From a virus (Duplodnaviria; Caudoviricetes): a stretch of 64,000 nucleotides of DNA. The stretch covers positions 64,001 to 128,000 of IMG/VR virus record IMGVR_UViG_3300029288_007102; one strand, 5' to 3'. Shown piece after piece: positions 16,116-32,510 of the stretch (within the stretch, counting starts at the first letter, position 1; each line of letters begins with the position of its first letter). The notes under the pieces were generated by a model. The model worked only from the letters and a program-made list of their open reading frames with translations. It made no database searches and had not been told where the DNA came from. A program made the translations under genes and the position numbers.

Positions 16116-17291
16116 ATGATTCTCAACGAATGGAAGAAAGATCTTTGGAAGAATTATAATTTAGATTTCAGAAAAGTCATAGGATACGAATTAGGGGGTG
16201 ATTATGGGAGGCTCCTTAAAGAAACGATGGAGTTGTTTGATCGTGGTTCATATGCCCATCTGATATTAAGAAACAATGCTACATTAATTGGGCAGAATAT
16301 CATAAATATGGCTGGAACTGTAAGTTTAGATGAAGAAGAAACTTTGTTAATGAATTGTGATTTAGTTGTAACTTCAGATACAGGACTGTGCGATCTTTTG
16401 AATAAAAAGAATCGTAGAGTCCTGTTTTTGTCTACATCGAGTCTTAGTTCTTTTGAATTTTTGTCTAAGGTTAGAGAAATTGTTGAGTATGGAGTTTACA
16501 AAAAATTAAATGTTGTTGGGATGGATTGGGATGTAAATACCACACTAAATAATTTTAATAAGGCAGTCGTAGTAGAGAAAGTGGAGGCGAAAGTTTTCCA
16601 GGAGAAAAAAGAGCTTTCTAAGTCTATCGGGATTGTTATGCCGTTATATAATCAAGAGAAGTATGTAGGGAAAACCATAGAAAGTCTATTAAGGCAAACT
16701 TTTAAAAATTGGAATCTTTATGTGGTAAATGACGGCTCATTAGATAGGTCTAAGGAGATTGTCGACTCTTTTAATGATAGAAGGATTGTTTCTGTAAGCC
16801 ATATGAAGAATATGGGGATCTCTGCTGCGTTAAATACTGGCTTTAAATTGGCCAAGGAACCTTATCTTACGTGGATTTCCGGAGATAATATTTATTATGA
16901 AGATTGTTTTAGTGAAATGTTAAATGTAATGATGTCGACAAGAAATGTAGAGTTTGTTTATGGGAACTATGACATTATTGATAAAGATGATAATTTTTTA
17001 AGAAGTGTGACGAATTTGCCATATGACCGGAAACAGCTTTTGGATAGTTATAATTTAGGGATCTGTTTTTTATTTACAGAGCAGATAAAAAAATCTGCTG
17101 GCGAGTATAGGGCGGGATATGCCCAAGATTATGACATGGCTGTAAGAATGTCTCAGTTTGGTCAATTTTATAGATTGGATAAATCTTTAGGGGCGTTCCG
17201 GCAGCATGAAGAACAAGCTTCCACTAAGAATGTTTCTGGTGATACAAAAGAAGTCAAAGAGCTTGCAAAGAAAGTGATAAAAAATAGATAG
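16116..17291 (+). CDS. Glycosyltransferase family 2 with degenerate GT9-like N-terminal region
   Basis: C-term 'IVMPLYNQEKY', 'VVNDGSLD', 'NMGISAALNTG', 'QDYDM'; N-term 'CDLVVTSDTGL' resembles GT9. Confidence 0.85.
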   Translation: MILNEWKKDLWKNYNLDFRKVIGYELGGDYGRLLKETMELFDRGSYAHLILRNNATLIGQNIINMAGTVSLDEEETLLMNCDLVVTSDTGLCDLLNKKNRRVLFLSTSSLSSFEFLSKVREIVEYGVYKKLNVVGMDWDVNTTLNNFNKAVVVEKVEAKVFQEKKELSKSIGIVMPLYNQEKYVGKTIESLLRQTFKNWNLYVVNDGSLDRSKEIVDSFNDRRIVSVSHMKNMGISAALNTGFKLAKEPYLTWISGDNIYYEDCFSEMLNVMMSTRNVEFVYGNYDIIDKDDNFLRSVTNLPYDRKQLLDSYNLGICFLFTEQIKKSAGEYRAGYAQDYDMAVRMSQFGQFYRLDKSLGAFRQHEEQASTKNVSGDTKEVKELAKKVIKNR

Positions 17292-17302
17292 GAGAGAATG
17301 AA

Positions 17303-18841
17303 ATGACTGAACCCCTTGTGTCTGTAGTTATTCCTACATTTAATAGGAAAGTTATTGTTCAGCGGGCAATAGAAAGCGTTCTTAAGCAGACCTACAAAAA
17401 TGTTGAAATCGTTGTTGTTGACGATGGCTCAACAGATGGTACTGATCTGATTATAAAAAGAAGCTATAATGCTCCTAACATAAAGTATATTTATAAGGAG
17501 AATGGGGGTTGTGGGTCTGCATTAAATAAGGGCATAAAAAACTCATCTGGGGATTTTATCTGCTGGCTTTCTTCTGATGATTATTATTATGATACAACTA
17601 CATTAGAAACTATGTTGGAGGCATTAAAGGTTAAGCCTGAGGCTATGGTGGCGTATTCAGATTTTTTTATAGAGTATGACAACGCCTCCCCTTTCACGGT
17701 ATCTCACGAAAAGATGACCCTCCATCACGCTAAACATTTTGATACAAAACAAGAAAGATATCTTTATAATTTTAAAGAATGTCTTATGAATGGCTCAACT
17801 ACTATGTTCAGAAAAGAGATCTTTAAAAAGGTTGGGTTGTTTAATGAGTGTTATAAGTACTGTCAAGACTGGGATTTATGGTTTAGGATTCTTTATGATT
17901 ATGAGGTTGAATATATAGCCAAACCATTGACTGTATATAGTGCCCATAAAGATGCTCAAGGTTTAGCGATTATGGATCACAGAAAAGCGTACGAGAGACA
18001 GAAATTTGAGAAAGAAAAGATGCTTGTGGCAAAACATCAAAGATTGTGGCTTAACAGAGGGAATAGGCCTACTGTCTGTGTGATGCTTTGTGTAAAGGAT
18101 GAGGAAGAAATGATTGAACAATGTTTGGATGATATAATCCAATGGGCAGATAAAATTGTTATATTTGATGATGGATCTACCGACAAGACGCCAGAATTAA
18201 TAAGACAGTATCCAAAGGTTGTAGATATATATAGACAGAAAAATAAGGGGAACAAAAGAACGGAGGGGAAGGATAGACAAAAATTGTTAGATATGGCAAA
18301 AAATACCGGGTGCGATTGGTTATTCTTCATTGACACAGATGAGATATGTGAAACCCGGTTTAAGTGGGATATTTACGATCTCATCAGCGATAAGAAGATT
18401 AATCTATATTATATGAAAGAACTTAATTTGTGGAGGAGTCTGACCCATAGAAGAGTCGATGAGATGTACGATAAAGGGTGGTTTGGTAGGATGTTAAGAA
18501 ATTTCCCGGAATTAAAAATCCATTCAGAAATAAACGAGCATTGTTGTGGAATTCCTTATAATATCCCCGGGGCTTCTCCTTGGTATTCTGAAGCAGATAC
18601 TAATTCTAAAAAGATGGATGTTGGGATGATTCATTATGGGTTTGCATATTGGGATAGAACGATTAAGAGATATGCGGCAAGAATGGAAAGAGACCCATAC
18701 AGAAACGATAAAGTCCAGGGAAGATGTATTGGTGGGTGGCTTTACTATGAAAGAATGATTGATGAGACTCATTTAGAGTTGGAGCCTTACGAATACATAA
18801 AGAATCAGATGAAGATAGTTGATGATTATATAATAAAATGA
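17303..18841 (+). CDS. Two-domain glycosyltransferase family 2
   Basis: 'PLVSVVIPTFNR..VVVDDGSTD..WLSSDD..QDWDLW' and a second domain 'CVKDEE..FDDGSTD..WLFFIDTDE..IHYG'. Confidence 0.9.
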   Translation: MTEPLVSVVIPTFNRKVIVQRAIESVLKQTYKNVEIVVVDDGSTDGTDLIIKRSYNAPNIKYIYKENGGCGSALNKGIKNSSGDFICWLSSDDYYYDTTTLETMLEALKVKPEAMVAYSDFFIEYDNASPFTVSHEKMTLHHAKHFDTKQERYLYNFKECLMNGSTTMFRKEIFKKVGLFNECYKYCQDWDLWFRILYDYEVEYIAKPLTVYSAHKDAQGLAIMDHRKAYERQKFEKEKMLVAKHQRLWLNRGNRPTVCVMLCVKDEEEMIEQCLDDIIQWADKIVIFDDGSTDKTPELIRQYPKVVDIYRQKNKGNKRTEGKDRQKLLDMAKNTGCDWLFFIDTDEICETRFKWDIYDLISDKKINLYYMKELNLWRSLTHRRVDEMYDKGWFGRMLRNFPELKIHSEINEHCCGIPYNIPGASPWYSEADTNSKKMDVGMIHYGFAYWDRTIKRYAARMERDPYRNDKVQGRCIGGWLYYERMIDETHLELEPYEYIKNQMKIVDDYIIK

Positions 18842-18855
18842 AAAGGAGAATATGA

Positions 18856-20760
18856 ATGAAAATAGTCAACATTTCTTTAAATTATGATCCAGCTTGTGCG
18901 GGAGAACTTTTAAGTCGTGTTATAAACAAGAATACGGATCATGTTTGTAGATATATCATTGGGGATTACACAAGATTCCCTGCTGGAAGTAAATTTAACG
19001 AATCTTCTGATATTGTATTTTTTGATAAGTTTAACATAAATGAGGTCCATCAAATATTGAGAGAGGCCGATGTTCTTCACTTTAACCAATATGATTGGAC
19101 AACTAAATGGGAGGATTTATATTGGATTTCGTCTAGAAAATCTTTATATCCTAAAGAGGAACTTCCTGCTATAGACTGGAAATCTTATCTTTCTGGAAAA
19201 GTTGTTGTGTGGCATGGTCATGGTGGGGCTTGGTTGTTAAATCCGGAAAAGCAGATGAAAATCTGTCGTGATGTGGGGGCAGTTCCTATAACATGCTCAC
19301 CTATAGATGAAAAAGTAGCCCCGGGACTTGTTTGGATGCCAAATCCGTTATCAACAGAATCTTCTTATTTAAAACCAAAGGAGAGAAACTGGGATGGAGA
19401 ACTTTTAGGGGGGATGGCATCTGTTGCCGGAGACTATAAAGGAAAAGTTATAGCCGAATATGTGTTTGAATATGTCAATAAAGCTGGTTATCCAGTTAAA
19501 TTTGATTATATAACACAGAAGACTAGAAGAGAGTCTCTTGAACAGAGGAAAAACTGGCATATAACTATAGATAATTGGACACAGGGGTTCTTTGGTTTGG
19601 CTGGGCTGGAAGGGTTAGCTTTAGGTCATATAACTATAGCAAGATTAGATCCTTTAGCTAGAGAAAGATGGGATTCTATGTTCAAGTACGATCCAGTTCC
19701 TGTTGTTGATGTTAAAGGAATGGATGAATGTGGAAAGGTTTTAAGAGATTTGTGTAACGATAGAGCATTAGCAAAATGGATGTCGGTAAAGTCAAGTATG
19801 TGGATACAGAATAATTATTCAGAAAAGAAAATGGCTGATAGATGGATTAAATTTTATGAATCGTGTCCGGTTGCTCATGGGGGTAAAAAAAATATTTCTA
19901 TGTCGACGAATTCTGTTGATACAAGGGAAGCTATAAAAACATCTGAGAAGGAAAGTAAGGTTTTTAGTGTAAGGCCAGTTTTTGAAGAAATTTCAACAGT
20001 TGAAGATCTTGTGAAAAGGGAAAAAGAAGAAAAAGTTATTCTAGCTCCTATAGTAGAGAATGAGAGGGGAACTGTGATAGAGATTCTTCCTGATACTCCA
20101 GCTATTGATAAAATAGAGAAAGATTATCCTGTTTATCATAACTATGTTCATGATCAGTTCGATCAGACAGGAGATCTAAAAAAACCATTAGATAGGATTA
20201 TGGGGAATGAATCAAAAAATGATTACGAACTAGATATGATTAAAAAAGTTATGATGGAAAGGGTGAATTTTAAAGATAAAACCAGAGTTATGGACGCCGG
20301 ATGTGGAATAGGAAGACTGTTTCCTGTATATAAGGAGTTGGGATTTAAGGAAGTTGTTGGGATGGATTATTCAACTTGGATGGTTGAGCAGTGCAGGAAG
20401 AAGTATCCAGATTCAAAAATTTATAATACGGACTTGGAGGCTATGTTTGCCTTCCCGGAGAATTCAGTAAATGTTGCTGTTGCTATGTATGTGTTTATTC
20501 ATATTCTTGATGATGATAAATTAACGAGAACGATAAATGCTATGGAGCATGCAGCGAAGGATCTTATAATAATAGGGCAAGTTATGGACCCTGAGCATTT
20601 AATTTCTACTGAATTTTGTAAAGTTAGGGAAGTGTATGATCTTTATAAGAGGTTTAAGACATTTAAAATGAAAAACTTTTTTAAAGATTATTACTCGGTG
20701 AAAGCCGACGATGGGAGTTGGGAGAATAAGATCTCGTTTCTTGTTATGAGTAAGGTATGA
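18856..20760 (+). CDS. GT-B-like glycosyltransferase fused to class I SAM methyltransferase
   Basis: 'ADVLHFN', 'GFFGLAGLEGLALG' (GT4-like); C-term 'RVMDAGCGIGR..VGMDYS'. Confidence 0.75.
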   Translation: MKIVNISLNYDPACAGELLSRVINKNTDHVCRYIIGDYTRFPAGSKFNESSDIVFFDKFNINEVHQILREADVLHFNQYDWTTKWEDLYWISSRKSLYPKEELPAIDWKSYLSGKVVVWHGHGGAWLLNPEKQMKICRDVGAVPITCSPIDEKVAPGLVWMPNPLSTESSYLKPKERNWDGELLGGMASVAGDYKGKVIAEYVFEYVNKAGYPVKFDYITQKTRRESLEQRKNWHITIDNWTQGFFGLAGLEGLALGHITIARLDPLARERWDSMFKYDPVPVVDVKGMDECGKVLRDLCNDRALAKWMSVKSSMWIQNNYSEKKMADRWIKFYESCPVAHGGKKNISMSTNSVDTREAIKTSEKESKVFSVRPVFEEISTVEDLVKREKEEKVILAPIVENERGTVIEILPDTPAIDKIEKDYPVYHNYVHDQFDQTGDLKKPLDRIMGNESKNDYELDMIKKVMMERVNFKDKTRVMDAGCGIGRLFPVYKELGFKEVVGMDYSTWMVEQCRKKYPDSKIYNTDLEAMFAFPENSVNVAVAMYVFIHILDDDKLTRTINAMEHAAKDLIIIGQVMDPEHLISTEFCKVREVYDLYKRFKTFKMKNFFKDYYSVKADDGSWENKISFLVMSKV

Positions 20761-21482
20761 AATTTTATCCTATAGTTTTGTGTAGCAAGATGCATAGTCA
20801 GATTTTAAACTTTAATTCAATAGGGATAATTATGGCAGGATCAATAAAGAAATTGGCCGAAAATTGGAGAAAATATTTCCCAAAAAGTAAGGTAAGTGTA
20901 AGTGCAAAGAATGATCATTCTGTTCTTTGTGAAGGATTAAATCTGGTGTATGATATTTGTAAAGAGAAGAGTTATGTCCCTGAGAATATTTTAGATGTTG
21001 GGTGTAGTGATGGGTTTGGAATGAGGATCTTGAAAAATTATTTTCCAAAAGCAAAGGTTTGTGGGATAACAATAAACCCAACAGAGAGCATGTTGGGGGA
21101 AACTGAATACGGCTTTAGTCAAGGGAAAGACATTCTTCTTATGGATATGCATGATATGACGTTTGAAGATAAAAGTTTTGATCTGATATATTGTCGTGAT
21201 GTTTTGGAGCATAGCATTTCCCCGTTGATAGCTTTATATGAAATGAATAGGGTGTTAAAGAATGAGGCTTATGCTTTTATCATTGTCCCGGATGAGAGAT
21301 CAATAGATTTTTTTGGCCATACTTATGTTTTGAATGAAAAACAATTAAAGCATATTTACGATAAAGCTGGGTTTGAGGTTGTCAATTATTCGTTTAGAGA
21401 TTATCCTAAATTCATTTTAGGGCAGAATAGGTATGTTTTAAAAAAAATAAAAGAACCTGTATATAATATTGTTGGATTTTAA
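20757..21482 (+). CDS. Class I SAM-dependent methyltransferase
   Basis: 'ILDVGCSDG', 'DMHDMTFEDKSFDLIY..VLEH..EMNRVLK'. Confidence 0.85.
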   Translation: MKFYPIVLCSKMHSQILNFNSIGIIMAGSIKKLAENWRKYFPKSKVSVSAKNDHSVLCEGLNLVYDICKEKSYVPENILDVGCSDGFGMRILKNYFPKAKVCGITINPTESMLGETEYGFSQGKDILLMDMHDMTFEDKSFDLIYCRDVLEHSISPLIALYEMNRVLKNEAYAFIIVPDERSIDFFGHTYVLNEKQLKHIYDKAGFEVVNYSFRDYPKFILGQNRYVLKKIKEPVYNIVGF

Positions 21483-21502
21483 TTGAAGGGGGAAGGAAAT
21501 AT

Positions 21503-22243
21503 ATGACTGAGGTATTATCTTATACAGATAAGGATATATTAGATTTTGTTGGTTCTGTACAATGGTATCAAGGGGATATAAAATTCCCTAATGGGTTAAC
21601 GACATCATCTCCTTATCCTTGCGATACTATTTTTAATATGTTTGGGGTGAAGGATGAGTACTTTAAAGGGAAAAGGGTTCTAGATTGCTGCTGCAATTCT
21701 GGATATTTTTCTTTTAAGGCGTTAGAGTTAGGGGCAGGGGAAGTTGTTGGCTTTGACAATTCAGAATATTGGATTTCTGTTGCAGAAAAAGTTAAAACTA
21801 TGAAGCTTATAAATAAGGAGCCTCATTATGGGAACAAATTAAGATTTTATGTGGAAAGTTTTAAGGATGTTGCCTGGGATCAGATTGGGAAATTTGATGT
21901 TGTTTTTATGAATTCGTGTCTATATCATATAAATATGGATATTCAGAATATTCTTGATATTCTTTCGGAAGCTTGCTCAGACAAACTTATAATTTTTACA
22001 AAGATATTCACATTTTGGAGTCCTGATTCATCTGAGCTTGGTGCTGATTGGAAGGGGAAATATGTTCCAACTTATGAGATGCTTGATTTTGAGCTATTGA
22101 GAAGGAAGTTTAATTTCATAGAACACTCAGCGTTGAAGAAAGAAGAGTTGAAAGAGGTTGGGGTGGGGATAAGCCTGGATGAGAGAAGGATTTTACAGCA
22201 GAAGTGTAATAAGATTTCTTTTGTAGCTTCAAAAAAGATATAA
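21503..22243 (+). CDS. Class I SAM-dependent methyltransferase
   Basis: 'WYQ', 'KGKRVLDCCCNSGYFSF..GAGEVVGFD', 'FDVVF...LYH'. Confidence 0.85.
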   Translation: MTEVLSYTDKDILDFVGSVQWYQGDIKFPNGLTTSSPYPCDTIFNMFGVKDEYFKGKRVLDCCCNSGYFSFKALELGAGEVVGFDNSEYWISVAEKVKTMKLINKEPHYGNKLRFYVESFKDVAWDQIGKFDVVFMNSCLYHINMDIQNILDILSEACSDKLIIFTKIFTFWSPDSSELGADWKGKYVPTYEMLDFELLRRKFNFIEHSALKKEELKEVGVGISLDERRILQQKCNKISFVASKKI

Positions 22244-22257
22244 CCTGGAGGGACTAT

Positions 22258-22965
22258 ATGTTTGGTAAAAGGAAGAAAGAGTTGGCAAAAGCTTCTATCG
22301 ATTTAAAAAACCATAAATGGTATCAAGGGGGATTAGATTTAGGGGATGGGACCGTTTCAGAAGCACAGGTTGACTGTAATGATATTTGGGTAAAAATGGG
22401 GATTGATAAGAAAGAGATAAAAGGGAAAAGGGTATTAGATATTGCTTGTTGCACTGGGTTTTTTGCGTTTAAGGCGTCTGAGTTGAAAGCAAAGTCTGTT
22501 CTCGGTTTTGATATAAACCAAAATGAAATAGAGATGGCAAACAAAGTAAAATTAAATAAAAAAATTAAAAATATTGAATTTTTATCCTGTCCTTTTGAGG
22601 GTTTTGATTGGGGAAAATATGGGCCATTTGATGTCTCTTTCGCTGTTAGATGTTTATACCACTTAAAAGGGGGGAATATACTTAAAACTATCTGTGACAA
22701 CACAAAGAGCACACTAGTTCTTTTTACTATGTTGTGGAGAGAAGATAACCCAAGCCATATTGGTTTAATCGGATGGGAAGGGCAGACGTGGAGATATATC
22801 CCAACATTTAAACAATTAGAGAAGGATTTGGAGGCTAATGGCTTTAAAATAGAATTGACCTCTGCACTTTTCCCTTGGCAATTAGAGTCCTGTAAGATTG
22901 TAGAATCTGAAAATGTATATGGTAATACGGCCCAGAGAATTATTATTAAAGCAAAGAGGAAGTAG
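22258..22965 (+). CDS. Class I SAM-dependent methyltransferase (paralog of preceding gene)
   Basis: 'WYQ', 'KGKRVLDIACCTGFFAF..VLGFD', 'FDVSF...LYH'. Confidence 0.85.
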   Translation: MFGKRKKELAKASIDLKNHKWYQGGLDLGDGTVSEAQVDCNDIWVKMGIDKKEIKGKRVLDIACCTGFFAFKASELKAKSVLGFDINQNEIEMANKVKLNKKIKNIEFLSCPFEGFDWGKYGPFDVSFAVRCLYHLKGGNILKTICDNTKSTLVLFTMLWREDNPSHIGLIGWEGQTWRYIPTFKQLEKDLEANGFKIELTSALFPWQLESCKIVESENVYGNTAQRIIIKAKRK

Positions 22966-22966
22966 G

Positions 22967-23590
22967 ATGGTTATTGGGATAAAAAATATTGAAAAAGAAC
23001 TTTCGAGGAAAAATACAAATTATGTTACCTATTTAGTTCATTTAACTGATGATACGCTTGGGGTTTGGAAACCATATGTTGTAAAAGGGAGATACAGAAC
23101 AGAACTACTTGTGTCAGATATAAACAAGATAATTGGTTTAGATTTGGTTCCAGAAGTGTCAGAAACTATATTTGAAGAAAAAGAAGGGATTGTAAGAAAA
23201 TATATTGAGGGTAAAAAGGGGGATTGTGTTGCTTATAGAACAATTAAAAAATCAGAGCTGCAAAAGTTGGCAATATTAGATTTTATCATATTTAATTGTG
23301 ATCGTGGATGGGGGAATGTTATTATCACAGAACAAGGTAAGATTTATGGGATTGACAATGATGCTACATTTATGGATGTTTTTGGGATTTCTTTGAATAT
23401 GGCTCATCTGATTGGGTGTGATTTGTGTGATGAAGCTTTAGATATGATAAAGGTAATAGACACAAATAAAGAAAAAATATCCGATAGGATGAAAGATTAT
23501 GGAATAACTCCAAGCTTATTCCAGTGGTACGAAAGAAGAGTTAATCTTTTAAATTATGTTGCTGGGCATGTCACTAAGATGGGATGGTAA
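22967..23590 (+). CDS. PI3/4-kinase/HipA/Fam20-like kinase
   Basis: 'GVWKP', 'LVPE', 'LDFIIFNCDRGWGN', 'GIDN'; ATG 22967 after AGGAAGTAGG. Confidence 0.7.
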   Translation: MVIGIKNIEKELSRKNTNYVTYLVHLTDDTLGVWKPYVVKGRYRTELLVSDINKIIGLDLVPEVSETIFEEKEGIVRKYIEGKKGDCVAYRTIKKSELQKLAILDFIIFNCDRGWGNVIITEQGKIYGIDNDATFMDVFGISLNMAHLIGCDLCDEALDMIKVIDTNKEKISDRMKDYGITPSLFQWYERRVNLLNYVAGHVTKMGW

Positions 23591-24324
23591 TTATGAATAT
23601 AGATAAAGTTTTAGATAGGTATCCAAACAAAGGGAGAGGGGTAGATTATGAGGTAGATGTTGTCTCCCTTAAAGATGGAGGGAAGGGGATTTTTAAAGGG
23701 AATATGAAAGCGGATCCTTACTCCATAATTCCGTTAAAAGAAGCCTTAGCGTACAAAGTGGATCAATTTATGAATTTTAATTTAGTGCCTGAGACAGAAA
23801 TCGTCTGGTTTGAAGGCCGGGCTGGTTCTTTACAAAGGTTTGTAAACGGGGTAGATGGACAGAAAGCCATTATCCAAAACAGTTTTAACCCCTCATTTGA
23901 GGAGATGCAAAAGTTAGCTATTTTTGATTTTGTGTTTAATAATTGTGATAGGTGGACTGTCAACTTTCTTTTAGAAGAGGATGGTTCTGTTCATGCAATT
24001 GATAACGCAGGATGTTTCCAAAATAGAGATACTTCTTCCTGTACTATCTATTATTTGCTTGGCCAAAAGATAACAGAAAAAAATTTGGTAATCATTAACC
24101 AGTTAATGAAAAATTGTAAAGAACTTTGCGAATTAATGTTGAGTTTTGAGTATGAGCCGTTAGAGGATGGAAAAAAGGTCAGTTTTAAAGAATTGTTTTC
24201 TGATAGCGTAAGGTTAACGACTAATCATATCTATTTGCTGGCTGGGTCCCAGGGGTGGGTACAGAACATAAATTATAAATTAGGATTGATTGCACCAGAA
24301 GAATTAGGGGTAAAAATGAAATGA
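23584..24324 (+). CDS. PI3/4-kinase/HipA/Fam20-like kinase (paralog)
   Basis: 'GIFK', 'EALAY', 'LVPET', 'GSLQRFV', 'FDFVFNNCDRWTVN', 'AIDNAGCF'. Confidence 0.75.
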   Translation: MVIMNIDKVLDRYPNKGRGVDYEVDVVSLKDGGKGIFKGNMKADPYSIIPLKEALAYKVDQFMNFNLVPETEIVWFEGRAGSLQRFVNGVDGQKAIIQNSFNPSFEEMQKLAIFDFVFNNCDRWTVNFLLEEDGSVHAIDNAGCFQNRDTSSCTIYYLLGQKITEKNLVIINQLMKNCKELCELMLSFEYEPLEDGKKVSFKELFSDSVRLTTNHIYLLAGSQGWVQNINYKLGLIAPEELGVKMK

Positions 24325-25640
24325 AAATATTATTATTGAGAATGAAAATTACAGATAAAGTTCCTATGCCGGAGGCCCCGCTCGGTCTTCTTTATATTGC
24401 TTCTGTTTTAGAGAATGCCGGACATGAAGTCATTTATAGAGATTTAACTTTTGATGAAATATCAAATGAAGAGTGGAAGATGATAGAAAGAGGGGAGTTT
24501 GAGCTTATTGGTATAACCATGCTCTCTTTTTTAAGGAATCAGGCTTACGATCTAATTAAAAAAGTAAAATCTTTGAATACTGGGGTTAAGATTATCGTTG
24601 GTGGGGTTCATGCTTCAGCAACCAGCCTTCAACTTGTAGACAATTTCCCAATAGATGCTGTTATCTTAGGGGAAGGGGAATTGACGGTCTTAGATATAGT
24701 AGAATGTATGCAAAATAAGGGGAATTGGAGAAAGATTAGAGGAATTGCCACAAAAGAAGGCCGAGTACACGAGCCTCAACCGCTTATTCAGAATTTAGAC
24801 TCTATTCCTTTTCCGGCATTTCATTTAACGGATATTGCAAGATATAAGATGTCTATTGCCTCTTTAAAGCCAGATAAGACTGTTAATGGGATACGGATTG
24901 GGGATGCTAATTGGGTTGGGATGATAGCCAGCCGGGGGTGTGTTGGAAGATGTATATTCTGTAATGCTTTTGATCATTGGGGATTAAAGGTTAGATTTAG
25001 ATCTCCCGAGAATATGCTTAATGAGATAGAATGGCTCCAATATGAGTTCGGGGTGTCTTTAATCGCTTTTAATGATGATGCTTTTCCTATATTGAAAAGG
25101 CAATGTATGGAGTTCTGTAACGGAATCGTAAAAAGAGGAATCAAGATAGCCTGGCAAACGACAACCAGACCGAATGTTTTAGATCAAGAAATGTGTCAGG
25201 CGATGAGGGAATCTGGATGTTTCATGGTCGTAATCGGATGTGAGAGTGGATCTCAAAAGATATTAGATAGGATAAAAAAGTTCATAAAAGTTGAAGATTC
25301 AGTAAGAACGATTAGGATGATATCTGAAAACAGGATGTGGAGTTATGCTCTTCTGATGATAGGAAATCCGGGGGAGTCAGATGGGACTATAGAAGAAACA
25401 ATTCAATTTTTACAGATCTCTAAACCAGATATTGTAAGTTTTGTTTCAGGTGTGATGATAACTCCGGGAACTGAAATGGAGCAGTTAGGGGTACAGGCAA
25501 AACTTCTTAAACCAAATTTTTGGGTTCAGGGGGCTGATGGGTTGCCTTTTTATACAGCTGAAGCTTCTTATGACAAGATATTAGGGTGGTCTAATAAGGT
25601 ATCGAAAGCATATCCTAATAATTTTGATAGATTAAAGTAA
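24321..25640 (+). CDS. Cobalamin-binding radical SAM enzyme (class B methylase-like)
   Basis: 'PLGLLYIASVL', 'VGGVHAS', 'GEGE', 'SRGCVGRCIFC' (CxxxCxxC), 'GCESGSQKIL'. Confidence 0.9.
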   Translation: MKILLLRMKITDKVPMPEAPLGLLYIASVLENAGHEVIYRDLTFDEISNEEWKMIERGEFELIGITMLSFLRNQAYDLIKKVKSLNTGVKIIVGGVHASATSLQLVDNFPIDAVILGEGELTVLDIVECMQNKGNWRKIRGIATKEGRVHEPQPLIQNLDSIPFPAFHLTDIARYKMSIASLKPDKTVNGIRIGDANWVGMIASRGCVGRCIFCNAFDHWGLKVRFRSPENMLNEIEWLQYEFGVSLIAFNDDAFPILKRQCMEFCNGIVKRGIKIAWQTTTRPNVLDQEMCQAMRESGCFMVVIGCESGSQKILDRIKKFIKVEDSVRTIRMISENRMWSYALLMIGNPGESDGTIEETIQFLQISKPDIVSFVSGVMITPGTEMEQLGVQAKLLKPNFWVQGADGLPFYTAEASYDKILGWSNKVSKAYPNNFDRLK

Positions 25641-25656
25641 AGAGGATTTAAAATAT

Positions 25657-26601
25657 ATGAAGATTGCTTTACTTCTCCCGGGGAATCTTGGAACACATAG
25701 GTTAGCGATTGAGTCTATCAAAAAAAACATAGTTGATCCAAACAATGCTGACGTTTTCGTGTTAACGTCAGCTAGCAATAACTATATTCATATGACAAAT
25801 TATGAATATAAGGGGAGAGATTTTCCTATACTTGTTGATGAGGATGATGAGAAAAAGATAAGGGATTGTTTTGGGGATAAGCTAGTTATGTTAAATTATA
25901 TAGAAGATATACAAGGGTATGATGATTTTATGAAAGATCAGATAGAAGACGCAAATAAAAGGTTGGCTTTGTGGTTTGGTCCTACAAATAGAGAGCATAC
26001 ACAGTTTTACGATTTTAAAAATAAGAGGATACTTAATCCCATAAAATATTTAAGTCAATTTTCTTTGATATATTATCTCACTAATTTTTTGATAAAGTAT
26101 GAAAAAGAAAAGAACATAAAATATGATTATATAATTAGGGCTAGGATTGATCAAAACTTTGACAAGAAGATAGAGATATGTGATGGTAAAGAAGGTCTAG
26201 AAAAATTCTTTTGGGTTGAAATGGACAACTTTTATTATGGGACAGCAGATATAATGAAGCTTTCTGGCTTAAATCTTATAAAAGAGATTGGGAGTTTTGA
26301 TAATCGTTGTATTACGGAAAAGGGGGATTATAGAAATACTATAGAGCCACAATTTAGGGAATTTATTAAAAAGTATGCAAAAATTTATGGGGTTGCATTG
26401 AATATAGCAAATATTAGAATAGGGATAAAGGTTTATAGCGAGAGTCAAGTTATCTCTATACCAATATGGAAAGTTTTTATGGATTCCCATCCCCAATTTG
26501 TTTTTGATAAAAATTTAACACCAAGATCTTATAATTTACCGGGAAAGTATAGGGGAGTGAATGAGATGTATCCTTTAGTTTGGACATATTATATATTTTA
26601 G
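25657..26601 (+). CDS. Putative glycan-related protein/glycosyltransferase
   Basis: 'MKIALLLPGNL', 'ADVF', 'KYDYIIRARID' pattern seen in uncharacterised glycan-cluster proteins; context. Confidence 0.5.
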   Translation: MKIALLLPGNLGTHRLAIESIKKNIVDPNNADVFVLTSASNNYIHMTNYEYKGRDFPILVDEDDEKKIRDCFGDKLVMLNYIEDIQGYDDFMKDQIEDANKRLALWFGPTNREHTQFYDFKNKRILNPIKYLSQFSLIYYLTNFLIKYEKEKNIKYDYIIRARIDQNFDKKIEICDGKEGLEKFFWVEMDNFYYGTADIMKLSGLNLIKEIGSFDNRCITEKGDYRNTIEPQFREFIKKYAKIYGVALNIANIRIGIKVYSESQVISIPIWKVFMDSHPQFVFDKNLTPRSYNLPGKYRGVNEMYPLVWTYYIF

Positions 26602-26617
26602 ATTAGGAGGGGTAGAA

Positions 26618-27361
26618 ATGGACACAAAAACAATGACAGCAGATTTGGCAATGATTGAGGCGGAGAAATGGGTAGAATTTAACAAAATAAATCCGGAGAC
26701 TATAGAACTTAACCATCCTCCTTCTGATTATACTCTTTTTGCTCAGAGTCGCACAGAGATAAAGGAGTTTGCTCAAGTTCTTGAGAAAATGGATAAAAGA
26801 GATATTGCTTTAGAGACAGGGGTATTTTACGGGGGCACTTTCTTTTTCTGGAAATTGTTTTTTGACCATGTGATAGGAATAGATATAAATCCTAAAAGTT
26901 GTGAGTTTGTAGGGAGAAAGTTAAAAGATTATGGCTGTGATCCCGCTAAACACAATCTTGTTTGTGGCGATGCTCATAATGTAGAGACTGAAGATAAGAT
27001 TAAAGAGATTCTCCAGGGGAGAAAAGTAGATCTCCTTTTTATTGACGGTTCTCATTCTTGCAGATCAATATTAAATGAATTTTTATGTTATGGAGCTCAT
27101 GTTCGAAGCGGAGGAATTATTGCAATCCACGATGTAGGGCAGGAAGCTTTTCCTGTCTGTGGGCACATTAAACCTGAGGAAAGGAATCATCTTTACTCTC
27201 TTAAAAATAATGTTTGGGTGAATTCTAACTGGGTATTTACGGAAATGAATTGTTGTGCAGTCCATTTAATGAGGGATCACGAAAGATATGGGGTTTCTAG
27301 GATGCAATTTATTCACCCTGAAATTCACCGTAGTGGTATTGGTTGGTGCATAAAGAAGTGA
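26618..27361 (+). CDS. SAM-dependent O-methyltransferase (Methyltransf_24-like)
   Basis: 'LETGVFYGGT', 'IGIDI', 'VDLLFIDGSHS', 'GGIIAIHD'. Confidence 0.8.
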   Translation: MDTKTMTADLAMIEAEKWVEFNKINPETIELNHPPSDYTLFAQSRTEIKEFAQVLEKMDKRDIALETGVFYGGTFFFWKLFFDHVIGIDINPKSCEFVGRKLKDYGCDPAKHNLVCGDAHNVETEDKIKEILQGRKVDLLFIDGSHSCRSILNEFLCYGAHVRSGGIIAIHDVGQEAFPVCGHIKPEERNHLYSLKNNVWVNSNWVFTEMNCCAVHLMRDHERYGVSRMQFIHPEIHRSGIGWCIKK

Positions 27362-27415
27362 ACAGGAAAGGGTTTTAGGTTGATTATATAAAGAGACTTA
27401 AGGAAGGGGAATGAA

Positions 27416-28582
27416 ATGAGAATCGTATCAGTTGCGGGAATTCGGCCAGACTTTATCCGGATGGCTAAAATAATTAGAGGTTTAGATGGCTGTGGTGGGA
27501 TAGAGCACATTTTGATTCATACTGGGCAACATTATAGCCACAATGTTAATGACATCTTCTTTGAGCAATTAAATATAAGAAAGCCGAACGTCAATCTTGG
27601 CATAAAATCAGGATCTTATGCAGAACAGACGGCAAAGTTGCTTGTGGCTTTAGAGAAAGAGCTGATTCGACTTAAGCCAGACGCTGTCCTTTTCTTAGGG
27701 GATTCAAATACTGCCTTGGGGGCCATTACCTCTGCAAAAATGAACATCTTTACGATTCATATTGAAGCCGGGATGAGATCTCATGATTGGCGTATGCCAG
27801 AAGAAAAGAATCGGGTGATAGTTGATCGACTCTCTAATTTACACTATGTGTATACAGAAAGATATAAAGAGAATCTGTTATATGAGGGATTTAACCCTGC
27901 CAATATTGTAGTTGTAGGTAATCCTATTGTAGATATTGTTAATAAATATAAAGACCAGGCTGCTAAGAGTGGGATTATACAGAAACTTAAATTAAAATAT
28001 GGTGAATATTTTCTGACAACCATTCATCGGGCTGAAAATGTGGATGATAAAGAAGTGTTAACTGAAATTCTTATGGGGCTAGGAATGGTGTACCGAAAAT
28101 ATAAGAAGCCGATAATTTATCCTATGTATTATAGGACCCAGAAGAGAATAAAGGAAATGGGGTTGGCTAACCAGATCCCTGAGGGTATTAGGGTTATGGA
28201 TCCTTTAGGGTTCTTTGAGTTTTTGGATCTGGAGGCCCATTCTATGTGTAATATAACAGATAGTGGGACTGTGCAGGAAGAAAGTCTGGTTTTGCGTACT
28301 CCTTGTGTTACTGCTAGATGGTCAACAGAACGGCCAGAAACAGTTGAGGTTGGGGCAAATATTGTTGCAGGTATTGAGGCGGGAGGAGTTTACCAGGCTG
28401 TAGTATCTATGGTTTCGTCTCAGCGGAGTTGGGACACATCAATACTGGGGGATGGGGAATCTAGTGTAAGGATTGTAGAAGATATAAAGGATAGGTCTGG
28501 GCAGATAATAAATAAAGAGCATCTCTTAATGGATCCTTTTGATTTTAGGAAAAGGAACTGTTTTGTGAAACGAGGGGCTTAA
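27416..28582 (+). CDS. wecB: UDP-N-acetylhexosamine 2-epimerase (non-hydrolysing; WecB/FnlC-like)
   Basis: 'GIRPD', 'HTGQHY', 'GDSNT', 'HIEAGMRS..MPEEKNR', 'HRAEN', 'TDSGTVQEE', 'TERPE'. Confidence 0.9.
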   Translation: MRIVSVAGIRPDFIRMAKIIRGLDGCGGIEHILIHTGQHYSHNVNDIFFEQLNIRKPNVNLGIKSGSYAEQTAKLLVALEKELIRLKPDAVLFLGDSNTALGAITSAKMNIFTIHIEAGMRSHDWRMPEEKNRVIVDRLSNLHYVYTERYKENLLYEGFNPANIVVVGNPIVDIVNKYKDQAAKSGIIQKLKLKYGEYFLTTIHRAENVDDKEVLTEILMGLGMVYRKYKKPIIYPMYYRTQKRIKEMGLANQIPEGIRVMDPLGFFEFLDLEAHSMCNITDSGTVQEESLVLRTPCVTARWSTERPETVEVGANIVAGIEAGGVYQAVVSMVSSQRSWDTSILGDGESSVRIVEDIKDRSGQIINKEHLLMDPFDFRKRNCFVKRGA

Positions 28583-29538
28583 TGAAAAATGTGCTGGTTA
28601 CTGGATGTGCTGGGTATGTTGGGGGTAGCGTAGTTGATCAATTAATAAAGAGCAATAAATATAATATTAGAGGATACGATAACCTTTTATATACCGATAC
28701 TTATATGCAGAAGATAGAATTTGTCAATGGGGATATAAGAGATGAGGCTAAGTTAAAAACACAATTGGATTGGGCTGATTGTGTGATTCATTTGGCAGCG
28801 ATAGTGGGAGACGCAGCCTGTTCTCTTTATCCAAAAGAGACTGTGGCGATAAACGAGAAAGCGGTAGAATTTATATCTAAAAATTTTAATGGAAGGATAA
28901 TTTTTTGTTCAACTTGTTCTGTCTACGGGATGCAAGACGGGGTTCTTACCGAAGATTCCCCAGCCAACCCTCTTTCTTTGTATGCCGGGACGAAATATGC
29001 TGCAGAGAAATATTTAAAAGGAAAGAACGCTTTAATTTTTAGATTAGGGACTCTTTATGGAATAGGGTATAGATTTGGGCGATGCAGATTTGACCTTGTA
29101 GTTAATGTTATGTCTTCTGACGCTTTTATAAATAAGAAATTGACAGTTTTTGGTGGAGAGCAGTATCGCCCATTACTCCATGTTCGAGATGCGGCATATA
29201 TGTTAATCCGGGCGATAGAGCATGATTATATAGGGGTATATAATTTGGCGTCGAAGAATATTAACATTTCTGATCTTGGCCAGCTAGTTGCTTCTAGAAT
29301 TAAAGGTTGTGAGTTGGAGACGATAGATATGAAATTTGAAGATAGCAGAAATTATCAGGTTGATTGTTCTAAGGCGGCTCAAGACATCTCTTTTGATGTA
29401 GAGAAAGCAATTCTGATAGAAGAGGGGGTAGATGAAATAGTAAAAATATTGAACGAAGGACGGATCAAAAATCCTAAAAATTGTATTCACTCAAATGAGT
29501 TTTTCTTGGGTAAACTGAAATATAATGGGAATAAATAG
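28582..29538 (+). CDS. NAD-dependent nucleotide-sugar epimerase/dehydratase (extended SDR)
   Basis: 'VLVTGCAGYVG', 'HLAAIVG', 'STCSVYG', YxxxK 'YAGTK'. Confidence 0.9.
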   Translation: MKNVLVTGCAGYVGGSVVDQLIKSNKYNIRGYDNLLYTDTYMQKIEFVNGDIRDEAKLKTQLDWADCVIHLAAIVGDAACSLYPKETVAINEKAVEFISKNFNGRIIFCSTCSVYGMQDGVLTEDSPANPLSLYAGTKYAAEKYLKGKNALIFRLGTLYGIGYRFGRCRFDLVVNVMSSDAFINKKLTVFGGEQYRPLLHVRDAAYMLIRAIEHDYIGVYNLASKNINISDLGQLVASRIKGCELETIDMKFEDSRNYQVDCSKAAQDISFDVEKAILIEEGVDEIVKILNEGRIKNPKNCIHSNEFFLGKLKYNGNK

Positions 29539-29609
29539 CGGGATGGAGCAGTGGTCAGCTCGTCGGGTTCATATCCCGGAGGTCGGTGGTTCGAATCCAC
29601 CTCCCGCAA
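29537..29609 (+). tRNA. Initiator-type tRNA-Met (CAT), no encoded CCA
   Basis: Cloverleaf AGCGGGA TG GAGC AGTGGTCA GCTC G TCGGG TTCATAT CCCGG AGGTC GGTGG TTCGAAT CCACC TCCCGCA A; 1:72 mismatch, A11:U24, GGG/CCC anticodon stem. Confidence 0.93.
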
Positions 29610-29627
29610 TAATTTTATAAAAGGAGA

Positions 29628-30086
29628 ATGAAAATGGAAATGGAGATAGTTAAACCTTTTACGGTTGACATTAAACACATTGCTGATGATAGAGGTTTTT
29701 TGGTCCCAATATCTCAATTTTTACCAGTAGAGTTGCAAAAAGAGATAAAGAGAACTTATGTGGTAGGGGATTATGGGAAAGGAGTGATCCGGGGGCTTCA
29801 TGGGCATAGGAAAGAAATGAAGATCTTTTATATCATTAAAGGGTCAGCTAAATTTGTTGCCATAAATATGGGGGATTCTACCGACAAGTATGAAATTACT
29901 TTAGGAGAACGGGCTAATAGGTTATTTGTAGTTCCGCCAGGATATTTTAATGGCTGGGTTAGTTTAGAGGAGGGAACCTTGTTGGTAGCACTATCTACTT
30001 CTACCTTTGAGGAATCGGTAAAAGATGATGAGAGGGAGGATCCTTATAGGTATGGTGCGGATATATGGGGTGTTAAGGCCAGATAA
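29628..30086 (+). CDS. RmlC/WxcM-like cupin sugar epimerase/isomerase
   Basis: 'DDRGFL', 'GVIRGLHGH', 'VVPPGYFNG'. Confidence 0.85.
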   Translation: MKMEMEIVKPFTVDIKHIADDRGFLVPISQFLPVELQKEIKRTYVVGDYGKGVIRGLHGHRKEMKIFYIIKGSAKFVAINMGDSTDKYEITLGERANRLFVVPPGYFNGWVSLEEGTLLVALSTSTFEESVKDDEREDPYRYGADIWGVKAR

Positions 30087-30099
30087 ATAAGGAGGAATT

Positions 30100-30420
30100 G
30101 TGGAAATTCAAGGATTTGCGGAAGAAATAGATAAGACAGGATACTTGACAATAACGGCGGAAGACCATTCTGGTATCCCTAAAGACGATCATTTGATCGT
30201 TTTTAATAACAAAGATAATCAGAAATATAAAGTGCTTTTATCTACTGTGTGTTCTTATGACTGGCAGAATCTAAAGAGGGTTTTGGATGGCGGGGAAGCA
30301 AAGATAATGGATCAGATGACCCGGATCGTGGGATACTATTCAAGGGTTAGCAACTGGAATAAGTCTAAGTTAGGGGAACTTGGTGATCGGCGTAAAGGAG
30401 ATTACAAAATAGGAATATAG
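30100..30420 (+). CDS. Stand-alone NrdD C-terminal glycyl-radical-domain protein
   Basis: 'MTRIVGYYSRVSNWNKSKLGELGDR' matches the class III RNR glycyl-radical motif; only 106 aa; SD GGAGG before GTG. Confidence 0.75.
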   Translation: MEIQGFAEEIDKTGYLTITAEDHSGIPKDDHLIVFNNKDNQKYKVLLSTVCSYDWQNLKRVLDGGEAKIMDQMTRIVGYYSRVSNWNKSKLGELGDRRKGDYKIGI

Positions 30421-30430
30421 GAGGACATAT

Positions 30431-31315
30431 ATGAATGAAGGAACTGAATTGAAAGAGACGAATGTGTTGGTCTTAGGATGTACCGGAATGCTTGGACATA
30501 GGGTGTTTATGGAGTTTGCTAATCAAGGGTTTAATGTTTCAGGGACAATGCGGAGTGGATTAAAAGAGTATGATAAATATGACTTTTTTAACCCCCAAAG
30601 TGTTGTAGAGTTTCTTGACCCTGTAAATCATTTTTCAGGGATACTTGAAGCAGTGGAACAATTTGATCCTTCAGTGATCATTAATTGTATTGGTAAAACC
30701 AAACCTCACACTAAGGATCCGGTGGCCACCATTGAGACTAATTCTGTGTTGCCGCACAAGCTTGCCCGTTTTTGCGATGAGTTTGGGATAAAGTTGATCC
30801 ATATCACTACCGATTGTGTTTGGACGGGTAAAAAGGGCGATTATGGCCTTTCAGACCCCCACGATGCCACAGATCTCTACGGGAAAAGTAAGAGTTTGGG
30901 GGAAGTGGCCTACGGAAACCATCTTACTGTCCGCACTTCTATTATAGGGAGAGAGCTGAATAGCCGGGATAATTTATTAGAATGGATCCTCTCTCAGCCT
31001 GGTGATAGCGTATTGTCGGGGTTTACGGAGCATCTTTGGAATGGGGTTACGACTATGGAGTTAGCCAATATCTTGGTTAGAATAGTAGATGATGAGCCAG
31101 AACTAAAAGGGATAATCCAGATAGCAGGAGAGAAGATCAACAAGTATGATTTGTTGAACCTGGTTAAAGATGTTTATCATCTTAACTTTAAGGTAGAGCC
31201 TAAACAGACTGAAAAATGCGACCGGACAATGATCAATACGAGTGGGCACACTCCTCCGTCAATACGACAAATGTTAGAAGAATTTTACGGCCAAGAAGAA
31301 TTATATAAGAAGTAA
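30431..31315 (+). CDS. RmlD-like NDP-4-keto-6-deoxysugar reductase (QnlA/WbvR-like)
   Basis: 'VLGCTGMLG', 'INCIG', 'HITTDCV', 'DLYGKSK', 'RTSIIG'. Confidence 0.85.
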   Translation: MNEGTELKETNVLVLGCTGMLGHRVFMEFANQGFNVSGTMRSGLKEYDKYDFFNPQSVVEFLDPVNHFSGILEAVEQFDPSVIINCIGKTKPHTKDPVATIETNSVLPHKLARFCDEFGIKLIHITTDCVWTGKKGDYGLSDPHDATDLYGKSKSLGEVAYGNHLTVRTSIIGRELNSRDNLLEWILSQPGDSVLSGFTEHLWNGVTTMELANILVRIVDDEPELKGIIQIAGEKINKYDLLNLVKDVYHLNFKVEPKQTEKCDRTMINTSGHTPPSIRQMLEEFYGQEELYKK

Positions 31316-31326
31316 GAAGTGGGCAT

Positions 31327-32049
31327 ATGAAGATTTGTGCGATGCTTCAAATAAGGGATTGTGGAAAAAAGATTCTGTTTCTGCTAATGGCGATATCTCG
31401 GTTTGTGGATGATATTGTCGTGTTAGATCATGCCTCTAAAGATGACACTCATAGGATAGTAAAATTATGCCCAAAGGTAAGAGAGGTTTTGCGGGAGAAT
31501 GAACCTAACTGGGCTTTAGTGGAAATGAAGAATAAACAACGGCTGTTAGAACACTCCTTATTATATAAGCCGGATTGGTTGTTTTGGATCGACTCAGACG
31601 AATTGCCTTCTTCCCCTCTAATTGAAGGGGTCCGGAGTCTTCCTGAGAAACATCCTTCTGTAAGCTTATTTGGTTTTCCAGAAGTCAATCTATGGAATGA
31701 TGAATATCATTATAGGACAGATGAAGGATGGTATCCGGCTTGGACTTATAGATTAATTAAAGTTAATGGGGGGTTGAAGTTCTCACAAAAGAGGGGGGTA
31801 GGGCCACGCAACCCTATGATCCCAGAAGGAAAGACGCATCGTGAACCCTTGCTTGTAAATAATATGCCTATTCTTCATTATGGGTATATGACTGAACAGC
31901 AACGCCAAGATAAATTTAAACTTTATATGAGTTTGGATGACAACAAGGATGAGATGGACAAATATTTTACTTACAATAGGATTGTTGAAGATAAGATCGT
32001 AGTCTTAAAGGAGGTAGAACCCAAATGGCTATTGACCCCACAAACTTGA
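31327..32049 (+). CDS. Glycosyltransferase family 2-like
   Basis: 'IVVLDHASKD', 'DWLFWIDSDE', 'ILHYGY'; similar to second domain of 17303..18841. Confidence 0.8.
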   Translation: MKICAMLQIRDCGKKILFLLMAISRFVDDIVVLDHASKDDTHRIVKLCPKVREVLRENEPNWALVEMKNKQRLLEHSLLYKPDWLFWIDSDELPSSPLIEGVRSLPEKHPSVSLFGFPEVNLWNDEYHYRTDEGWYPAWTYRLIKVNGGLKFSQKRGVGPRNPMIPEGKTHREPLLVNNMPILHYGYMTEQQRQDKFKLYMSLDDNKDEMDKYFTYNRIVEDKIVVLKEVEPKWLLTPQT

Positions 32050-32492: not shown

Positions 32493-32510
32493 AAAGGGGG
32501 TGAGCAATAT

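Follow-up and report, generated by a model that had tools for sequence, protein, structure and literature searches.

The question raised by the stretch of DNA analysed here (the window, i.e. the 64,000 nucleotides from base 64001 to base 128000 of the 183,208-bp IMG/VR record IMGVR_UViG_3300029288_007102) is what a tailed phage builds with a block of 17 genes, at positions 16116-32049, that consists almost entirely of glycosyltransferases, methyltransferases, kinases and nucleotide-sugar enzymes, and on what acceptor it builds it. The answer that we favour, with moderate confidence, is a late-expressed cytoplasmic system for protein glycosylation and glycan tailoring, whose likeliest targets are the virion proteins of the phage itself. 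Coordinates are window positions unless they are marked as genome positions, and assignments come from Pfam, NCBIfam and PDB sequence searches, with the ESM Atlas added where it is named.

All 17 genes lie on the + strand, with spacings of -53 to +89 nt and mostly GGAGG-type ribosome sites, which bears out the co-oriented, tightly packed block described in an earlier reading made without database searches (the sequence-only reading). Its enzyme inventory also agrees item by item with what was found, i.e. five glycosyltransferase domains in four proteins plus one probable glycosyltransferase, five class I S-adenosylmethionine (SAM) methyltransferase domains, one B12 radical-SAM enzyme, two kinases and four nucleotide-sugar enzymes. 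The list of contents did need correction in that a tRNA-Met gene and a small unrelated open reading frame (ORF) lie inside the block as well, and in that the start of a 225-aa ORF has been moved. The block (15.9 kb) and a further 3.2 kb of glycosyltransferase genes elsewhere bring the sugar genes to ~10% of the record. The genes concerned, with the two outside the block at the end, are as follows (GT2, GT9, GT-A and GT-B are glycosyltransferase families and folds; SDR, short-chain dehydrogenase/reductase; HexNAc, N-acetylhexosamine):

16116..17291, + strand, GT2 glycosyltransferase (391 aa; Pfam GT2 E 5e-28) with an N-terminal domain weakly like GT9 (E 1e-3)
17303..18841, + strand, two-domain GT-A protein (512 aa; Pfam, E 4e-49)
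18856..20760, + strand, fusion of a putative GT-B glycosyltransferase with a SAM methyltransferase (634 aa; methyltransferase domain at residues 460-575, Pfam)
20757..22965, + strand, three class I SAM methyltransferases (241, 246 and 235 aa; Pfam Methyltransf_11/_31/_25, E 2e-16 to 9e-12)
22967..24324, + strand, two paralogous minimal kinases of the phosphatidylinositol 3-/4-kinase (PI3/PI4-kinase) fold (~207 and 246 aa; from paralogy, alignment and model)
24321..25640, + strand, B12-binding radical-SAM enzyme (439 aa; Pfam B12-binding E 1e-19, Radical_SAM E 2e-20)
25657..26601, + strand, probable glycosyltransferase of a mostly viral family (314 aa; weak Pfam DUF7796)
26618..27361, + strand, CmcI/rhamnosyl-O-methyltransferase-like methyltransferase (247 aa; Pfam Methyltransf_24 E 2e-10, RMNT_CmcI E 2e-6)
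27416..29538, + strand, UDP-HexNAc 2-epimerase (388 aa) and extended SDR epimerase/dehydratase (318 aa; NCBIfam, PDB)
29628..30086, + strand, small cupin of the sugar 3,4-ketoisomerase or 3,5-epimerase type (152 aa; Pfam FdtA E 8e-12; PDB QdtA E 2e-8, RmlC ~1e-5)
30431..31315, + strand, RmlD-like nucleotide-sugar 4-reductase (294 aa; Pfam RmlD_sub_bind E 1e-18, TIGR01214 E 9e-18)
31327..32049, + strand, GT-A glycosyltransferase (240 aa), paralogous to domain 2 of the 512-aa protein
8727..9545, + strand, extra GT2 glycosyltransferase amid the baseplate genes (272 aa; Pfam Glycos_transf_2 E 2e-21, Glyco_tranf_2_2 E 7e-21)
genome 46977-49313 (L004:6977-9313), + strand, triple GT-A protein (778 aa) with a tail like tetratricopeptide repeats (TPR), in the head-to-tail module 14.7 kb before the window; domains GT2_4-type, Anp1/GT62-like and GT2

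Several of the glycosyltransferase domains are like enzymes that modify proteins. In the 512-aa protein the first domain (residues 4-113) is like chondroitin/heparosan synthase (PDB phmmer, 2z86, E 6e-23) and the second (residues 250-372) is like GmaR (E 9e-10) and SunS/ThuS (~1e-5) in the same type of search. The 240-aa enzyme matches that second domain with a BLASTP E of 4e-20 over 194 aa, retains an acidic D-x-D-type motif and has no PHROG family. In the 778-aa protein, the middle domain is like procollagen galactosyltransferase (E 1e-7) and the third is like the flagellin O-GlcNAc transferase GmaR (E 5e-23), SunS (E 4e-12) and also ThuS, and all of these best solved relatives modify proteins or peptides. 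At the level of sequence, three GT-A domains (the second of the 512-aa protein, the 240-aa enzyme and the third of the 778-aa protein) resemble the protein/peptide glycosyltransferases GmaR and SunS. Residues 1-340 of the 634-aa fusion, a protein with only 12 homologues in a set of 5.8 billion proteins, look like a GT-B enzyme according to ESM Atlas features and structure (score 0.92, TM 0.64/0.89), which we take as a lead. It is likewise as a lead only that the 314-aa protein is called a probable glycosyltransferase, given its ESM Atlas score of 0.97 to Uroviricota 'glycosyltransferase'/DUF7796 clusters and a structure like that of capsule-biosynthesis proteins. The 272-aa GT2 lies outside the block to which the sequence-only reading had confined itself. 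Phage-wide, six GT2 domains in four proteins are above the Pfam cut-off, and there are at least 10 glycosyltransferase domains.

As for the sugar itself, the 388-aa epimerase scores well above the WecB equivalog cut-off of NCBIfam (287.6 bits vs 210), and its nearest PDB entries are, by their depositors' names, an archaeal UDP-GlcNAc 2-epimerase (4neq), WbpI-type UDP-2,3-diacetamido-2,3-dideoxy-glucuronic acid 2-epimerases and CapG, while the nearest entry to the 318-aa SDR is 6vo6 (E 7e-31). Going by family membership, the set formed by these two enzymes, the cupin and the RmlD-like reductase would fit the formation of UDP-ManNAc, or a route over a 4-keto intermediate to an epimerised or 6-deoxy-L-HexNAc. 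One related locus (L027) again combines all four genes with glycosyltransferases, and three others (L026, L028 and L036) do so in part, which argues that the four form one pathway. A sugar-1-phosphate nucleotidyltransferase (PF00483) was not matched in the 183-kb record, which is estimated to be 87% complete (this bounds every absence stated for the whole record), and the pathway must therefore start from a host nucleotide sugar. The earlier description of the cluster as autonomous, with its own sugar supply, was thus overstated.

The fifth of the class I SAM methyltransferase domains is the C-terminus of the 634-aa fusion. The 439-aa protein joins a B12-binding domain to a radical-SAM core in which CX3CX2C is invariant, i.e. 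it has the makeup of a class B radical-SAM enzyme; it reaches no equivalog cut-off of NCBIfam, belongs to no PHROG family and is probably a methyltransferase. Relatives occur in only four deposited phage records, in different contexts. The B12-radical-SAM gene of Streptomyces phage SF3 has nucleotide-metabolism surroundings and was hence set aside as not comparable.

For the kinases, the sequence matches alone are weak (PI3_PI4_kinase E 2e-5, just below the Pfam cut-off; TIGR03843 E 6e-13), and a full HMMER search with the kinase gave 818 relatives. In a 50-sequence alignment of the 246-aa kinase, the Lys and Glu are near-invariant, and the D-R-x3-N loop and the metal-binding Asp are invariant; its AlphaFold model (pLDDT 95.9) has type II PI4-kinases as top Foldseek matches (E 1e-7, TM 0.5-0.62). 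The 225-aa kinase is 27% identical to the 246-aa one (E 2e-20) and its assignment follows from this paralogy; because of the alignment with its paralogue it probably starts at Met19 (22967), just past the upstream stop. The presence of two kinases is therefore upheld, through the PI4-kinase (PI4K) fold and catalytic residues for the longer and through paralogy for the shorter. The PI4K-fold kinases have no PHROG family, and the kinase was unmatched in 50,697 deposited phage records. The combination of a B12-radical-SAM enzyme, a PI4K-like kinase and multiple methyltransferases looks new for phages. A separate observation on the kinase domain is that it recurs 2-4 times within giant proteins of 2,900-6,200 residues (P0020, P0029, P0051 and P0164).

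None of the 17 cluster proteins has a transmembrane helix (the top 19-residue hydropathy is 1.83) and none matches a membrane-protein family. The block therefore holds no flippase, polymerase, transporter or membrane-bound priming transferase, and its chemistry must be cytoplasmic, on a soluble or peripheral acceptor. It is carried by what is a virulent-looking 183-kb myovirus: 244 of the 274 ORFs called on the whole record are on the + strand, the hallmark genes comprise a large terminase, a portal, a protease-like protein and a tail sheath, the major head protein is at genome 34660-35610, and the window itself contains a tape-measure-like protein, baseplate J (6601-8040) and a second baseplate protein (8041-8730). 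Since the nearest deposited relative of baseplate J, from Bacillus phage G, is only 29% identical, this large, uncultured myovirus is a distant one. The record yielded neither an integrase nor a resolvase, which makes its 'provirus' class in IMG/VR doubtful. Despite that class, the record is co-oriented and phage-like end to end; the parent contig measures 188,201 bp, of which ~5 kb was trimmed off. As in virion glycosylation, soluble phage glycosyltransferases are thus found in or near structural genes, both in the block between tail and lysis genes and amid the baseplate and head genes.

Whether this arrangement is peculiar to one phage can be judged from 23 loci that an alignment of the GT-B protein retrieved from metagenomes. 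One diverged relative on a metagenomic contig (L015) keeps the gene order, with fibre-like genes followed by the GT2, the two-domain GT-A protein, the GT-B-methyltransferase fusion and the three methyltransferases. The identities are 41% for the 718-aa and 36% for the 527-aa fibre-like protein (the latter in two copies), 51% for the GT2, 69% for the two-domain GT-A protein, 51% for the fusion and 63, 39 and 33% for the methyltransferases. The sole intruder in L015 is a Vsr/restriction-endonuclease-like ORF (L015:9111-10004, + strand) between the two-domain GT-A and fusion genes, which looks like a mobile endonuclease insertion. In an unrelated phage (L018), a lambda-D-like head decoration protein and a major head protein of another capsid family (PHROG 29) are followed, after 77 nt, by a 1105-aa multi-glycosyltransferase and then by a GT-B enzyme, a PI4K-like kinase, three CmcI-type methyltransferases, another methyltransferase, a B12-radical-SAM homologue (43%) and a second radical-SAM enzyme. 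L022 has a core like that of L018 and then a minor tail protein, while L028 and L036 have genes for collagen-like tail fibres and, after these, a GT-B fusion accompanied by 2-epimerase, SDR and RmlD-like genes. Synteny with structural genes in related phages, which had been proposed as a check on the sequence-only reading, is thus seen in five loci (L015, L018, L022, L028 and L036). The two-domain GT-A and GT-B enzymes are fused in one protein in L024 and L030, which indicates that they work together. Homologues of the B12-radical-SAM enzyme, 40-47% identical, are present in the phage-like loci L018, L021, L022 and L030, and the CmcI-like methyltransferase has three paralogous copies in L018 and L021.

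Elsewhere relatives are scarce. A megablast of the whole block against the 50,697 phage records gave no match, scans of IMG/VR with single proteins and alignments gave no relatives or one weak one, and a pattern scan of 185,579 species-representative genomes with the alignment of the GT-B-methyltransferase fusion gave no relative. In the same genome set the B12-radical-SAM alignment found relatives of at most 30% identity only, mainly in metagenome-assembled genomes of Clostridia; none of these cellular loci has a cluster-like gene set nearby, two carrying one further cluster-gene homologue and the rest none.

A virion coat is the best reading of these results, because the block is phage-borne, late in position, soluble and conserved in a relative, because several of its glycosyltransferase domains are like protein-modifying enzymes, and because homologous modules adjoin capsid and tail genes in unrelated phages. 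The sequence-only reading had proposed the same, and what has been added in its favour is the phage-borne, tail-to-lysis, soluble and conserved nature of the block and its GmaR/SunS-like domains. The analysis establishes which genes are present, the folds, catalytic motifs and solubility of their products, and where the block lies and how it is conserved; the acceptor, the identity of the sugar and the order of the steps are what we infer. The CapG/WbpI/WecB-family 2-epimerase, the extended SDR, the cupin and the RmlD-like reductase would convert a UDP-HexNAc of the host, probably UDP-GlcNAc, to at least one rare sugar, and the first sugar of the chain would be put on protein by the GmaR/SunS-kind GT-A domains (the second of the 512-aa protein, the 240-aa enzyme and the 778-aa triple glycosyltransferase). 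The chain could then be extended by the chondroitin-synthase-like domain, the 391-aa GT2, the 634-aa GT-B and the 314-aa protein, after which the five SAM methyltransferases and the B12-radical-SAM enzyme would methylate the glycan and the two PI4K-fold kinases would phosphorylate it. It is also conceivable, and we put this forward only tentatively, that the genes belong to a portable glycan-tailoring cassette which passes between tailed phages that are not related and settles next to their capsid or tail genes, with the two-domain GT-A and GT-B enzymes as its core, two radical-SAM enzymes (one of them B12-binding), PI4K-fold kinases and several methyltransferases as its usual companions, and a heavily methylated (possibly C-methylated), phosphorylated virion-protein glycan as its product. 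If so, protein glycan chemistry of this kind would be met in a phage for the first time, which would also suggest that virion glycosylation is widespread outside the actinophages.

A number of points weigh against virion proteins as the targets. The similarity to GmaR and SunS is one of GT-A domains only and is no proof of a protein acceptor, the late timing is deduced from position only, and glycosyltransferases of the soluble kind are also able to modify wall polymers that are lipid-linked on the inner side of the membrane. A search for mycobacteriophage-style acceptors found no Ser/Thr-rich C-terminal tails on the major head, tail-tube-like and sheath proteins; the windows richest in Ser/Thr do fall in structural proteins, but this is ordinary for beta-rich proteins, and the search says little either way. 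Five of the 10 longer related loci are without a recognisable structural gene in the flanks covered, and one (L035) looks cellular, so that the association of the module with structural genes is frequent, not universal. Adjacency to structural genes has been reported for DNA-hypermodification clusters too (Pyle et al. preprint), and position alone is therefore not decisive. Finally, both the glycan and the acceptor are predicted here from genes, which leaves room for some other soluble product or target.

One alternative is that the block does not belong to the phage, being either a host O-antigen or capsule locus misjoined to phage DNA or host DNA at the edge of a provirus, as the IMG/VR label and the likeness of its gene content to cellular polysaccharide loci might suggest. 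However, the block is internal, as phage genes of the same orientation flank it for ~80 kb in one direction and ~87 kb in the other, and there is no compositional break: neither its GC content (0.33-0.40) nor its GC skew differs from that of the remaining window. The junction between fibre genes and cluster is repeated on the separate metagenomic contig L015, and the pattern scans of species-representative cellular genomes turned up neither the GT-B-methyltransferase protein nor a B12-radical-SAM locus with a cluster-like gene set. A misassembled host O-antigen locus, the outcome that the sequence-only reading had named as fatal to it, is therefore very unlikely, and we regard an artefact of either kind as next to negligible.

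With a phage-borne block, the enzymes could still remodel the host envelope by decorating a wall polymer or lipid-linked precursor (teichoic acid, lipopolysaccharide or capsule) from the cytoplasm, for superinfection exclusion or a change of serotype. This is the usual reading of prophage glycosyltransferases and of jumbo-cyanophage sugar clusters (Iyer et al. 2021, PMC7824862, for the 15-gene cyanophage clusters), and it agrees with the best PHROG matches of the GT2 domains, which are 'GtrB-like O-antigen conversion' families, with their weak matches to cluster genes of P-SSM2/P-SSM5 and with the 'provirus' label. Membrane proteins are nevertheless missing from the block (i.e. flippase, polymerase and GtrA/GtrC-type partners), neither an integrase nor a resolvase was found in the record, and some glycosyltransferase genes lie among those for the head and the baseplate, the L018 module even adjoining a capsid gene; moreover, the tail-lysis position implies expression shortly before lysis, when a changed surface has little value. 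Host surface conversion, which the sequence-only reading had listed as an alternative, is thereby weakened to a rather doubtful option. The product could also be a free oligosaccharide or small molecule that carries methyl or phosphate groups, or the enzymes could glycosylate proteins outside the virion, of the phage or of the host. Either would suit the solubility of all the enzymes, the cellular-looking neighbour (an FtsH-like protease) in L035 and the mix of B12-radical-SAM enzyme, kinase, methyltransferases and glycosyltransferases, which recalls the tailoring of secondary-metabolite sugars. Such a product or target would, however, leave the repeated linkage to capsid and tail genes unexplained, and the block is without aminotransferase, cyclitol synthase, polyketide or non-ribosomal peptide synthetase and export genes; we consider it unlikely. 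The remaining candidate is DNA, since phage glycosyltransferases paired with sugar epimerases put diverse sugars on 5-hydroxymethylcytosine for evasion of restriction, in clusters that may lie near structural genes (Pyle et al. preprint). The base-handle enzymes of the DNA-glycosylating clusters in that preprint were not found in the 87%-complete record, i.e. there was no PF00303 (thymidylate-synthase-family hydroxymethylase), PF12851 (TET/JBP dioxygenase; this search was without a positive control) or PF00145 (C5 DNA methyltransferase). In addition, the cluster is far from the replication genes, and 17 genes with many methyltransferases and kinases exceed any DNA-sugar pathway in the preprint. 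This second alternative of the sequence-only reading has thus lost ground with the absence of hydroxymethyl-pyrimidine handle genes, and it is distinctly unlikely.

For a virion coat, several known systems offer a comparison. GmaR (the Listeria flagellin O-GlcNAc transferase) and SunS/ThuS (glycocin S-glycosyltransferases) share the GT-A domains, with E values of 5e-23, 4e-12 and 9e-10, and the TPR-like tail of the 778-aa protein, but here the domains are fused in multi-glycosyltransferase proteins and encoded with extension and tailoring enzymes. In the glycosylation of Megavirinae (Mimivirus/Megavirus) fibrils and chlorovirus capsids there is an own UDP-GlcNAc tailoring branch, with glycosyltransferase-methyltransferase fusions and methylated rare sugars on particle proteins. 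These clusters are not known to contain a B12-radical-SAM enzyme or PI4K-like kinases. They belong to eukaryotic giant viruses, unlike the present phage, and the likeness is one of described gene content only.

Among phages, the mycobacteriophages Che8, Corndog and Myrna glycosylate capsid and tail-tube proteins with 2-4 glycosyltransferases of their own, and those of cluster O add an O-methyltransferase (Freeman 2023, as cited in PMC11600133 and PMC12363180). As far as these citing accounts go, the likeness lies in soluble phage glycosyltransferases (with the O-methyltransferase in cluster O) believed to modify capsid or tail proteins in the cytoplasm, and the difference in scale: 2-4 glycosyltransferases and at most one methyltransferase there, against at least 10 glycosyltransferase domains, five methyltransferases, a B12-radical-SAM enzyme, two kinases and a four-enzyme sugar branch here. 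The Ser/Thr-rich glycosylated C-termini that the accounts describe were not seen in the present phage, whose glycosylation is predicted from its genes. Jumbo cyanophages have 15-gene sugar clusters with SDRs, cupins, PfkB kinases, nucleotidyltransferases and many glycosyltransferases, which were read as serving modification of host lipopolysaccharide or capsule (Iyer et al. 2021, PMC7824862). Like those of the P-SSM2 type, the present cluster is one of ~15 genes in a large myovirus with SDR epimerase/dehydratases, cupin isomerases and several glycosyltransferase families, and there is a weak GT2 similarity (~29%). The cyanophage clusters are self-supplying through PfkB sugar kinases and nucleotidyltransferases, whereas here no nucleotidyltransferase was found and the kinases have the PI4K fold; conversely, neither a B12-radical-SAM enzyme nor a link to structural genes is reported for them. 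Given the cyanophage clusters and the mycobacteriophage precedents, a large phage sugar cluster and virion glycosylation are not new in kind, and the earlier statement that such a cluster would be unusual for a bacteriophage holds for the tailoring set and for the scale, with ~10% of the record spent on sugar genes, and not for the existence of the cluster as such. Two other types of system were considered and rejected, namely an aminoglycoside-like pathway (no aminotransferases or cyclitol synthase) and a Wzx/Wzy O-antigen or ABC-transporter-dependent capsule locus (no membrane priming transferase, flippase/polymerase or transporter).

Glycosylation of phage virions is known from no more than a few mycobacteriophages, where the enzyme sets are small and antibody recognition is altered by it. 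With ~10% of a genome given to a soluble sugar line in a structural operon, particle glycans may be far more elaborate, and commoner, in environmental phages. Cassettes beside capsid genes also provide a testable enzyme set, e.g. glycan-acting B12-radical-SAM enzymes and minimal PI4K-fold sugar or protein kinases, which could serve the glyco-engineering of phage particles and enzyme discovery.

The remaining features of the block and its borders are:

12289..16041, + strand, two distal tail/fibre-like proteins (718 and 527 aa) directly upstream of the block (weak PHROG matches for the 718-aa protein)
29537..29609, + strand, tRNA-Met (CAT) gene inside the cluster (ARAGORN; Rfam RF00005, 60 bits)
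30100..30420, + strand, 106-aa ORF with a C-terminal glycyl-radical motif of the NrdD type (Pfam NRDD positions 531-561, E 6e-6, just below cut-off)
32025..32879, + strand, lysis genes, i.e. an M15 peptidase endolysin (32025-32492) and then a small holin-like membrane protein (Pfam and hydropathy)
33572..33593, + strand, best intrinsic-terminator-like site of this strand, past the tail-glycan-lysis stretch (9-bp stem with 5 GC pairs, then a T-run)

The label 'tail fibre' given earlier to the upstream border is borne out only in part, by weak PHROG matches of the 718-aa protein to tail-fibre/baseplate families; the 527-aa protein has no family match, and its fold predicted from three sequences (pLDDT 31) is unusable. 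At the other border the endolysin was correctly named, with a Peptidase_M15_3 match of 28.3 bits against a cut-off of 23.2, and the small protein after it has one transmembrane helix, the only strongly hydrophobic one of the region (KD19 2.17). The late operon gives the impression of being continuous, as the best terminator candidate of the + strand lies beyond the lysis genes.

Within the block, the 106-aa ORF ends in R-I-V-G-Y-Y-S-R-V-S-N-W-N-K, which is typical of the glycyl-radical loop of the anaerobic ribonucleotide reductase NrdD. A full-length NrdD was not found in the 183-kb record, and the ORF itself matches neither a PHROG family nor any deposited phage. It is probably not part of the glycan pathway, and could be a stand-alone 'spare-part' glycyl-radical module for the NrdD of the host, or a gene remnant. 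The tRNA-Met gene is situated in the 89-nt gap between the SDR and cupin genes and begins at the stop codon of the SDR gene. A second radical-SAM protein (310 aa; window 42422-43354, + strand) is encoded outside the cluster, in a tRNA-like/RNA-repair region.

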